DNA of 44,529 nucleotides. It comes from Escherichia phage SP1. The stretch is taken from the sequence record PV610739.1; one strand, 5' to 3'. The notes under the pieces were generated by a model. That model had not been told where the DNA came from. It saw only the letters and a program-made list of their open reading frames with translations, and ran no database searches. Within the stretch, counting starts at the first letter, position 1. Every line of letters starts with the position of its first letter. This document shows positions 15,899 through 16,575 of this stretch, one piece after another. The position numbers were made by a program, and so were the translations under genes.

Positions 15899-16261
15899 AT
15901 GGCTAAAGCACCACTCTTCACACTTGACCCTAAGCCGACCTTTAAGCTGCCGATTGAGATCCCGCGCCCTGGTGAGAGCGAGCCGGGCAAGATGACCTTT
16001 ACCGTCCGCCACCGCCCGATCGACGAGTTTTCGCAGACCATGCAGGACACCGAGCGCAAGCTGTCGGAATATGACGACAATGACCCGGACGGCTTTAACG
16101 TTATGGTTGAGGCCATCATGCACGTCGCTGAAGGCTGGAATCTGCCAGACCAATTTAACGCTGAGAACGTCCGCCGCCTGGTAGTCAACTACCCGCGCGC
16201 GTTCGGCGTGTTCCACACCTCGTACTATCTCGAATTGATGGGATTGCGTGAAAAAAACTAA
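15899..16261 (+). CDS. tail assembly chaperone (lambda G-like)
   Basis: 120-aa acidic protein between major tail and tape measure; ends in slippery heptamer; start ATG 15899 (RBS GGAGAA). Confidence 0.7.
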   Translation: MAKAPLFTLDPKPTFKLPIEIPRPGESEPGKMTFTVRHRPIDEFSQTMQDTERKLSEYDDNDPDGFNVMVEAIMHVAEGWNLPDQFNAENVRRLVVNYPRAFGVFHTSYYLELMGLREKN

Positions 16262-16575
16262 TTGAGGCGGCGCGACGCTTTTATGGCCCGCCGCCACCCT
16301 CCGAAGATGTAGCCGCAAGTTTATGGGGCGCGGCCCCCGAAGATGTTTGTCCGTCTGTTGCGCTATGGCCCGACAACGCGAAGATAGTCGCAGTCTTCAC
16401 AGATTGCTCTACGCAATGGCGCACCGGATTCGGTGGGGCATACGGCATCGACTACGGCGTGCTGGAATGGCTATTTAAGATGCACGGCATCGAAAACGAG
16501 CAACGTGCATTTAAAGATATCAAGCTAATGGAGCGAATCGCGCTTGATGAAATGGCGCAACAAAACCCCGCATAA
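15899..16575 (+). CDS. tail assembly chaperone GT-like, programmed -1 frameshift product
   Basis: Slippery A AAA AAC at 16252-16258 in zero frame; -1 frame open for 105 codons (16258-16575) with no start codon of its own. Confidence 0.6.

Follow-up and report, generated by a model that had tools for sequence, protein, structure and literature searches.

The tail assembly chaperones of phage lambda, G and its frameshifted form GT (Levin, Hendrix & Casjens 1993; Xu, Hendrix & Duda 2004, 2013, 2014; as summarized in PMC5009743), are produced at a GT:G ratio of about 1:30 (PMC5009743). In an HK97-like prophage chaperone cluster, frameshifting has been measured at 6 to 7% (PMC3711429), and in the chaperone pair gp12/gp13 of Acinetobacter phage vB_AbaS_Loki, an AAAAAAC sequence adjacent to the stop codon has been noted (PMC5313236). 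The heptamer A_AAA_AAC is also a proven −1 site in E. coli in insA-insB′ of IS1 (as cited in PMC4066793). Motifs for −1 shifting that end in AAC shift far less in E. coli than those ending in AAG (PMC4066793; PMC5009743).

Here we analyzed a window comprising the whole 44,529-nt stretch of Escherichia phage SP1 (PV610739.1). We consider it very probable that the tail assembly chaperone gene of this phage, which we assign below to the genus Dhillonvirus, carries a programmed −1 ribosomal frameshift at its 3′ end. As in lambda, a short ORF with a start-less −1 extension lies between the major tail protein and tape measure genes, a slippery heptamer is found near the end of G, and a low ratio of fusion to short product would be expected. 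The signals themselves are different: the lambda heptamer is G_GGA_AAG, an efficient one in E. coli, whereas the A_AAA_AAC of SP1 adjoins a stop codon. In the lambda record, the G ORF extends 19 nt beyond the annotated T start. More generally, lambda and dnaX combine the E. coli-optimal A_AAG with a more distant stop, in contrast to the A_AAC and adjacent stop of the protein family described here (Phage_TAC_4/DUF1799).

The proteins also differ. Profile comparison by hhalign gave probabilities of 0.1% for G and 1.2% for T against their lambda counterparts, the Pfam families are not the same, and no Pfam family of the lambda G/T type matched SP1 G and T at an E value of 1 or less. An initial sequence-only reading of this DNA had called the product GT-like, a term that suits the analogous position and architecture but not the ancestry, as the profile comparison with lambda G and T finds nothing. 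On these comparisons, the relation to lambda G/T is one of position and architecture only. The same reading had described the heptamer as textbook and canonical; its pattern deserves these words, but in E. coli A_AAA_AAC shifts only weakly (PMC5009743, PMC4066793). Such weak shifting fits the small GT:G ratio known for lambda.

The other systems share single elements with SP1. The Loki pair has the same signal architecture, which is likewise a prediction only, and we liken it to SP1 by this signal and not by Pfam family. IS1 has the identical heptamer, a low efficiency in E. coli and no established stimulator, but its product is a transposase and its shift limits transposition, whereas the SP1 product is a chaperone. 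E. coli dnaX resembles SP1 in shifting by −1 on an A-rich heptamer (A_AAA_AAG) with a hairpin downstream. It differs in having AAG in the A site, a high efficiency, a shifted product that is the shorter one and an upstream Shine-Dalgarno-like stimulator; no stimulator of this last kind is conserved among the SP1 relatives. The T1-like Drexlerviridae (Rtp rtp35/rtp36 and Henu8 gp36/gp37) have the same protein families, with T domains at 26 to 39% identity, and, in the same place as SP1, an A_AAA_AAC with a stop immediately after it. These phages belong to other genera and families, and their own records annotate two genes and not slippage. SP1 shares the Phage_TAC_4/DUF1799 families with T1-like phages and with numerous prophages of proteobacteria.

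The 2.2 kb around the shift site is 99.6% identical to Escherichia phage Haito_Bas83 and matches about 157 to 158 phage records, nearly all of them from Dhillonvirus siphophages of E. coli; HK578 and Sodalis phage SO-1 are among the matches. By this similarity, we assign the window to Dhillonvirus, as an HK578/SO-1-like E. coli siphophage. Two records, one named for a Campylobacter host (phage A144, MG065648.1) and one for Acinetobacter, are about 94% identical to the Dhillonvirus region; these host names look like mislabeling or contamination and not a true change of host.

The tail genes lie on the plus strand. The tail terminator (14620-15042; phrog_179) and the major tail protein (15104-15829; phrog_584) are followed by the 120-aa ORF of the G-like tail assembly chaperone (15899-16261; PF08748, Phage_TAC_4) and the T-like extension, with 105 codons plus TAA in the −1 frame (16258-16575; PF08809, DUF1799). 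Next comes the tape measure gene (16973-19618; phrog_24), with lambda-like minor tail genes downstream of it. About 700 nt between the G ORF and the tape measure gene hold no long ORF. The G/T pair thus occupies the interval between the major tail protein and tape measure genes that is the expected position of tail chaperones. Four features of the conserved tail-chaperone frameshift of long-tailed phages (Xu, Hendrix & Duda 2004) can be recognized from sequence, and SP1 has each of them: this location, a start-less ORF in a shifted frame, a slippery sequence in the right phase and an arrangement that relatives have kept. Between the major tail gene and G, we also noted a strong hairpin with T6 resembling an intrinsic terminator (15860-15882, plus strand; GGGGCCAGCACGGCCCC then TTTTTTATTG), which probably lowers the expression of the downstream tail genes relative to that of the major tail protein.

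The G ORF starts at ATG 15899 and stops at TAA 16259-16261, and its 3′ end reads CGT GAA AAA AAC TAA. The slippery heptamer A_AAA_AAC (16252-16258, plus strand) is in the exact X_XXY_YYZ phase of the zero frame, with Lys AAA in the P site and Asn AAC in the A site, and the zero-frame stop follows directly 3′ of it. In the −1 frame, a TGA at 16249-16251 is followed by uninterrupted sense codons (16252-16572) up to a TAA at 16573-16575. After a slip, this frame provides 105 codons, the first of which re-reads C16258 as CUA. The only ATG, GTG or TTG codons in this frame are GTG 16459, ATG 16480, ATG 16528 and ATG 16552. The longest ORF with its own start is therefore 38 aa, which explains why the −1 ORF is missing from the ORF list, where entries are at least 40 aa long.

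Most of this anatomy had been anticipated by the sequence-only reading. The A AAA AAC heptamer in correct zero-frame phasing is borne out by the last sense codons, GAA AAA AAC, and the claims that the −1 frame stays open for 105 codons and that the ORF track missed it both hold. Two details needed amendment. The ORF was said to end 1 nt after the heptamer, which is where its stop codon starts; including the stop, it ends 3 nt after. The −1 frame was said to have no start codon of its own, and this is true of its first 67 codons but not of the remainder, which has GTG 16459 and the later ATGs.

AAAAAAC occurs only once on the plus strand of the 44.5-kb window. Among the 94 plus-strand heptamers of the X_XXY_YYZ type, only four have 80 or more open codons in the zero frame together with 100 or more in the −1 frame; one is the site described here, and the other three lie in a nonconserved frame of the downstream repeat region. 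The coincidence of heptamer and open −1 frame is more than chance.

We then characterized the predicted products. G has 120 aa and 13.9 kDa, and it matches Pfam family PF08748 (Phage_TAC_4) over the whole model (positions 1-124 of 124; E = 3.7e-23; 82.5 bits against a gathering threshold of 21.1 bits). The −1 extension matches PF08809 (DUF1799), also over the whole model (1-80 of 80; E = 1.1e-20; 74.1 bits against a gathering threshold of 26 bits), with residues 23-99 of the extension. We constructed the translation of the predicted G-T fusion (15899-16575, plus strand), a product of 225 aa and 25.6 kDa with the junction ...GLREKN/LIEAARR... and with both Pfam domains; its computed tryptic junction peptide is NLIEAAR. 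In PHROGs, the two halves match separate families of the category "tail," the T extension matching phrog_680 (1.7e-30). One family, phrog_17368, spans both: of its 213 profile positions, 1-107 match G and 150-212 match T. This span fits a family in which both halves are present in one product. A protein homology search with the fusion gave two matches, both to G only. AlphaFold2 yielded low-confidence models (pLDDT of 62.5 for G and 45 for T), with which Foldseek found nothing in the PDB at an E value of 0.001 or less, and a sequence search of the PDB found no relative.

In the proposed mechanism, most ribosomes would read GAA AAA AAC and terminate at TAA, giving the 120-aa G-like chaperone. 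A minority would slip back by one base on A_AAA_AAC in a tandem −1 slippage, with tRNA-Lys re-pairing from AAA to AAA and tRNA-Asn from AAC to AAA. Translation would then continue with CUA AUU GAG in the −1 frame for 105 codons, to yield a 225-aa G-T fusion with a C-terminal DUF1799 domain. By analogy with lambda G/GT, the G parts may coat the tape measure protein and the rare T domain may recruit the major tail protein. A low, fixed GT:G ratio would follow from the weakness of the shift site. The occurrence and efficiency of slippage and the elements that stimulate it are what we infer from sequence.

To follow selection across the site, we sorted variable sites by codon position in an alignment with 18 to 19 relatives (83 to 99.9% identity). 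For G in frame 0, we counted 11, 6 and 75 variable sites at codon positions 1, 2 and 3, respectively. In the downstream part, read in the −1 frame, the corresponding numbers were 23, 9 and 68; reading the same part in either other phase placed the excess on position 1 or 2. The third-position excess therefore moves from frame 0 to frame −1 at the heptamer, which shows that purifying selection changes frame there. The substitution pattern of the downstream part also rules out the small ORFs that are called there in some records.

The heptamer is invariant in 21 unique Dhillonvirus sequences and lies within a 13-nt invariant run (16247-16259). Third positions are unusually constant around it: 6 of 18 were variable between 16245 and 16297, compared with 153 of 225 overall (hypergeometric P = 0.0018), and all sliding windows that are equally invariant among these sequences overlap the shift site. 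In one relative, the TAA stop has become TGA, which is still a stop and is synonymous in the −1 frame.

We next looked for the signal in distant homologues. With the T extension as the query, tblastn identified A_AAA_AAC followed by TAA in Henu8 and Rtp (Drexlerviridae) and G_GGA_AAC followed by TGA in Pseudomonas phage YMC11/02/R656. A scan with the T-domain alignment, covering one genome per bacterial species plus IMG/VR, gave 117 loci at 29 to 47% identity. The loci encode 99 distinct T proteins, whose sources include Enterobacteriaceae, Pseudomonas, Stenotrophomonas and Burkholderiales, and the median T extension is 104 codons. An in-phase heptamer was present within five codons of the G stop in 96 of the 99, and it directly adjoined the stop in 91. 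The 96 heptamers were A_AAA_AAC (74), G_GGA_AAC (20), A_AAA_AAA (1) and G_GGA_AAT (1), and the associated stop codons were TGA (61), TAA (30) and TAG (5). After clustering at 60% identity, the heptamer was kept in 24 of 27 clusters (12 with A_AAA_AAC, 11 with G_GGA_AAC and 1 with A_AAA_AAA). The heptamer was missing in three homologues, one of them truncated by the end of its contig and another with A_AAG as an in-phase tetramer.

Shorter motifs thus occur at this place. A Klebsiella Webervirus has only an A_AAA tetramer, and the few family members without the heptamer that carry an in-phase tetramer instead (GCA_AAA_GTT_TAA and GCA_AAG_CCC_TAA) include Klebsiella phage VAC10 (440-766). This suggests that, in some lineages, a shift site shortened to A_AAA or A_AAG can suffice.

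A HMMER search of 1.8 billion representative proteins returned 1,073 T-domain clusters. The best 150 of these were all between 38 and 150 aa long, and their starts were scattered along the query. Among these 150, there is therefore no conserved start of the T region's own and no natural in-frame fusion. The combined evidence from gene order, Pfam and PHROG matches, frame-switching substitutions and a phased heptamer at 29 to 47% identity upholds the original proposal of a conserved programmed frameshift of the tail-chaperone type.

The same fusion could also arise if RNA polymerase added one A on the A7 run (16251-16257) in some mRNAs, in which case Lys would replace Asn at residue 120. The site does have seven consecutive A residues, one added A leads into the same frame as a −1 shift, and slippage on homopolymers is a known alternative route to such products (PMC5009743). 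We nevertheless find this explanation unlikely. What is conserved across the homologues is the phased X_XXY_YYZ pattern and not a long homopolymer: the Drexlerviridae relatives have only A6, and 11 of the 27 lineages use G_GGA_AAC, which contains just three A residues and is identically phased and placed. Runs of A7 are, moreover, below the length for efficient slippage by bacterial RNA polymerase. A minor transcriptional contribution in SP1 itself is possible.

Very unlikely, in our view, is a separate gene in the downstream frame, started from ATT 16261 or from GTG 16459/ATG 16480, which would produce free T and no fusion. Existing annotations lean this way: gp16 of both SO-1 and HK578 is annotated from ATT, and the Bas83, Opt212 and Kenya-K19 records call shorter internal ORFs. 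Termination-reinitiation at the overlapping UAAUU is also conceivable. However, ATT is a nonstandard start that lacks a preceding Shine-Dalgarno sequence, and it is not conserved, as Henu8 and Rtp have AAC TAA AAA there. Purifying selection acts on the 67 codons ahead of the first standard start, which also contribute to the DUF1799 match, and the starts that gene callers assign to the homologues are scattered. A separate gene would also leave the in-phase heptamer of 96 of the 99 homologues unexplained. A fortuitous heptamer in front of a nonfunctional remnant is effectively refuted by these sequence comparisons: although frames of at least 105 codons are open at 17% of random plus-strand starts (real genes included), the −1 frame here has a strong Pfam match and a third-position substitution pattern, and its frame, length (median of 104 codons) and heptamer are conserved across many genera.

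Programmed −1 frameshifting at A_AAA_AAC may be assisted by elements around the heptamer. The sequence-only reading had suggested looking for a stimulatory structure downstream, and folding gave a candidate hairpin (16266-16295, plus strand) in which GGCGGCG (16266-16272) pairs with CGCCGCC (16289-16295), at a minimum free energy of −17.1 kcal/mol and with a spacer of 7 nt after the heptamer; the spacer of a canonical −1 cassette measures 5 to 9 nt. All 14 bases of the main stem are invariant in the 21 unique relatives, including five third-codon positions, for which the chance is about 0.003 given a background of 68% variable; third positions in the loop and bulge vary among these relatives. 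The spacer and the invariant stem speak for the suggested structure. Against it, the hairpin is not more stable than shuffled sequence (z score of only −1.5), the relatives show no covariation or compensatory changes, and the feature is not family wide: in 73 distinct members, downstream folding had a mean z of −0.54, compared with −0.41 in control windows (P = 0.13). At the Henu8 site, another hairpin follows the heptamer, again at a distance of 7 nt (z of −3.2), and Rtp has no convincing hairpin at the shift site. A role of hairpin 16266-16295 as a stimulator is at most plausible.

We also considered an upstream Shine-Dalgarno-like stimulator, GGGAU at 16240-16244, which is disfavored as positions 16243, 16244 and 16246 are variable. 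A search of Rfam gave only subthreshold, miRNA-like matches, which come from the long inverted repeat in the repeat region, and none at the shift site. The adjacent stop codon may itself act as a "shifty stop" stimulator. Because the stop adjoins the A_AAC heptamer in 91 of the 99 distinct homologues, we raise, as a tentative and somewhat doubtful idea, that the Phage_TAC_4/DUF1799 family could use termination-coupled slippage, in which the P-site tRNA-Asn slips while the release factor is slow. If so, the GT:G ratio and, with it, tail assembly would be adjusted through the activity of the release factor or the host's translational state, and not through RNA structure.

Two further in-phase heptamers occur at the ends of open frames, A_AAC_CCC at 16563-16569 and A_AAA_AAG at 16955-16961. 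The −1 frame of the former is a 132-aa ORF over the repeat region (16575-16973), and that of the latter is the tape measure gene. Together, they suggested a frameshift chain leading from G through T and the 132-aa ORF to the tape measure protein, which we rejected. Relatives have between 382 and 406 nt from T to the tape measure gene, and these lengths do not differ by multiples of three. The 132-aa open frame is not conserved and has no PHROG match, A_AAC_CCC is often G_AAC_CCC in relatives, and the A-rich heptamer at 16955 lies in the ribosome-binding region of the tape measure gene. Since neither frame nor spacing is conserved among the relatives, we judge the heptamers at 16563 and 16955 to be chance occurrences on this comparison.

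The gap of about 400 nt between the T stop and the tape measure start (16575-16973) is filled, especially at 16581-16848, by a dense array of CGGGAC. Within this tail-module array, 15 copies are spread over the two strands, frequently at a spacing of 10 nt, and there is a perfect 25-nt inverted repeat (16580-16604 and 16679-16703). A second array, of seven copies (44258-44358), is located just downstream of the replicative helicase-primase gene (41886-44150). Together, the two arrays account for 22 of the 32 CGGGAC copies in the window; the SO-1 record names them "region A" and "region B." The longer motif GCGGGACR occurs 20 times against 4.5 expected. From their arrangement, the arrays look like iterons or sites for a DNA-binding protein. 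The first CGGGAC palindromes also form terminator-like hairpins directly 3′ of the T stop (16575-16622, plus strand). A terminator is annotated at the corresponding position in the records of HK578, as rho independent, and of WFI. A functional terminator at 16575-16622 would mean that the tape measure gene depends on read-through or on a promoter of its own.

Ribosomal slippage is unannotated in all nine related Dhillonvirus GenBank records that we inspected (Bas83, SO-1, rolling, HK578, Opt212, Kenya-K19 and Ioannina, plus WFI and others by feature names), and we found no description of a frameshift site in Dhillonvirus in the literature. The public annotations are inconsistent. In the inspected records, the T region is usually a "hypothetical protein" and is often fragmented, and many T1-like and prophage relatives also carry it under "hypothetical" names. 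The chaperone is often labeled "tail length tape measure protein," a name that PHROG/Pharokka-style labels (phrog_569 and phrog_680) give to both the chaperone and the T domain. The gp16 frames started from ATT extend over 1762-2076 in the SO-1 record region and 2796-3110 in that of HK578, and at 1824-2408, Bas83 has four small "hypothetical" coding sequences over the T region and the repeat array.

The shift site is an unannotated member of a textbook class and no new kind of biology, and our finding leaves the understanding of phage tail assembly unchanged. The only mildly new point, seen in the sequences of the homologues, is that the design of A_AAC plus an adjacent stop appears nearly universal in the Phage_TAC_4/DUF1799 family. 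The main value lies in annotation: once the frameshift is recognized, Dhillonvirus-like genomes can be given the correct 225-aa product. The signature of A_AAA_AAC or G_GGA_AAC with an adjacent stop is simple and can be checked in automatic annotation. Sites of the SP1 type also offer a compact natural system for the contribution of an adjacent stop codon to −1 frameshifting.
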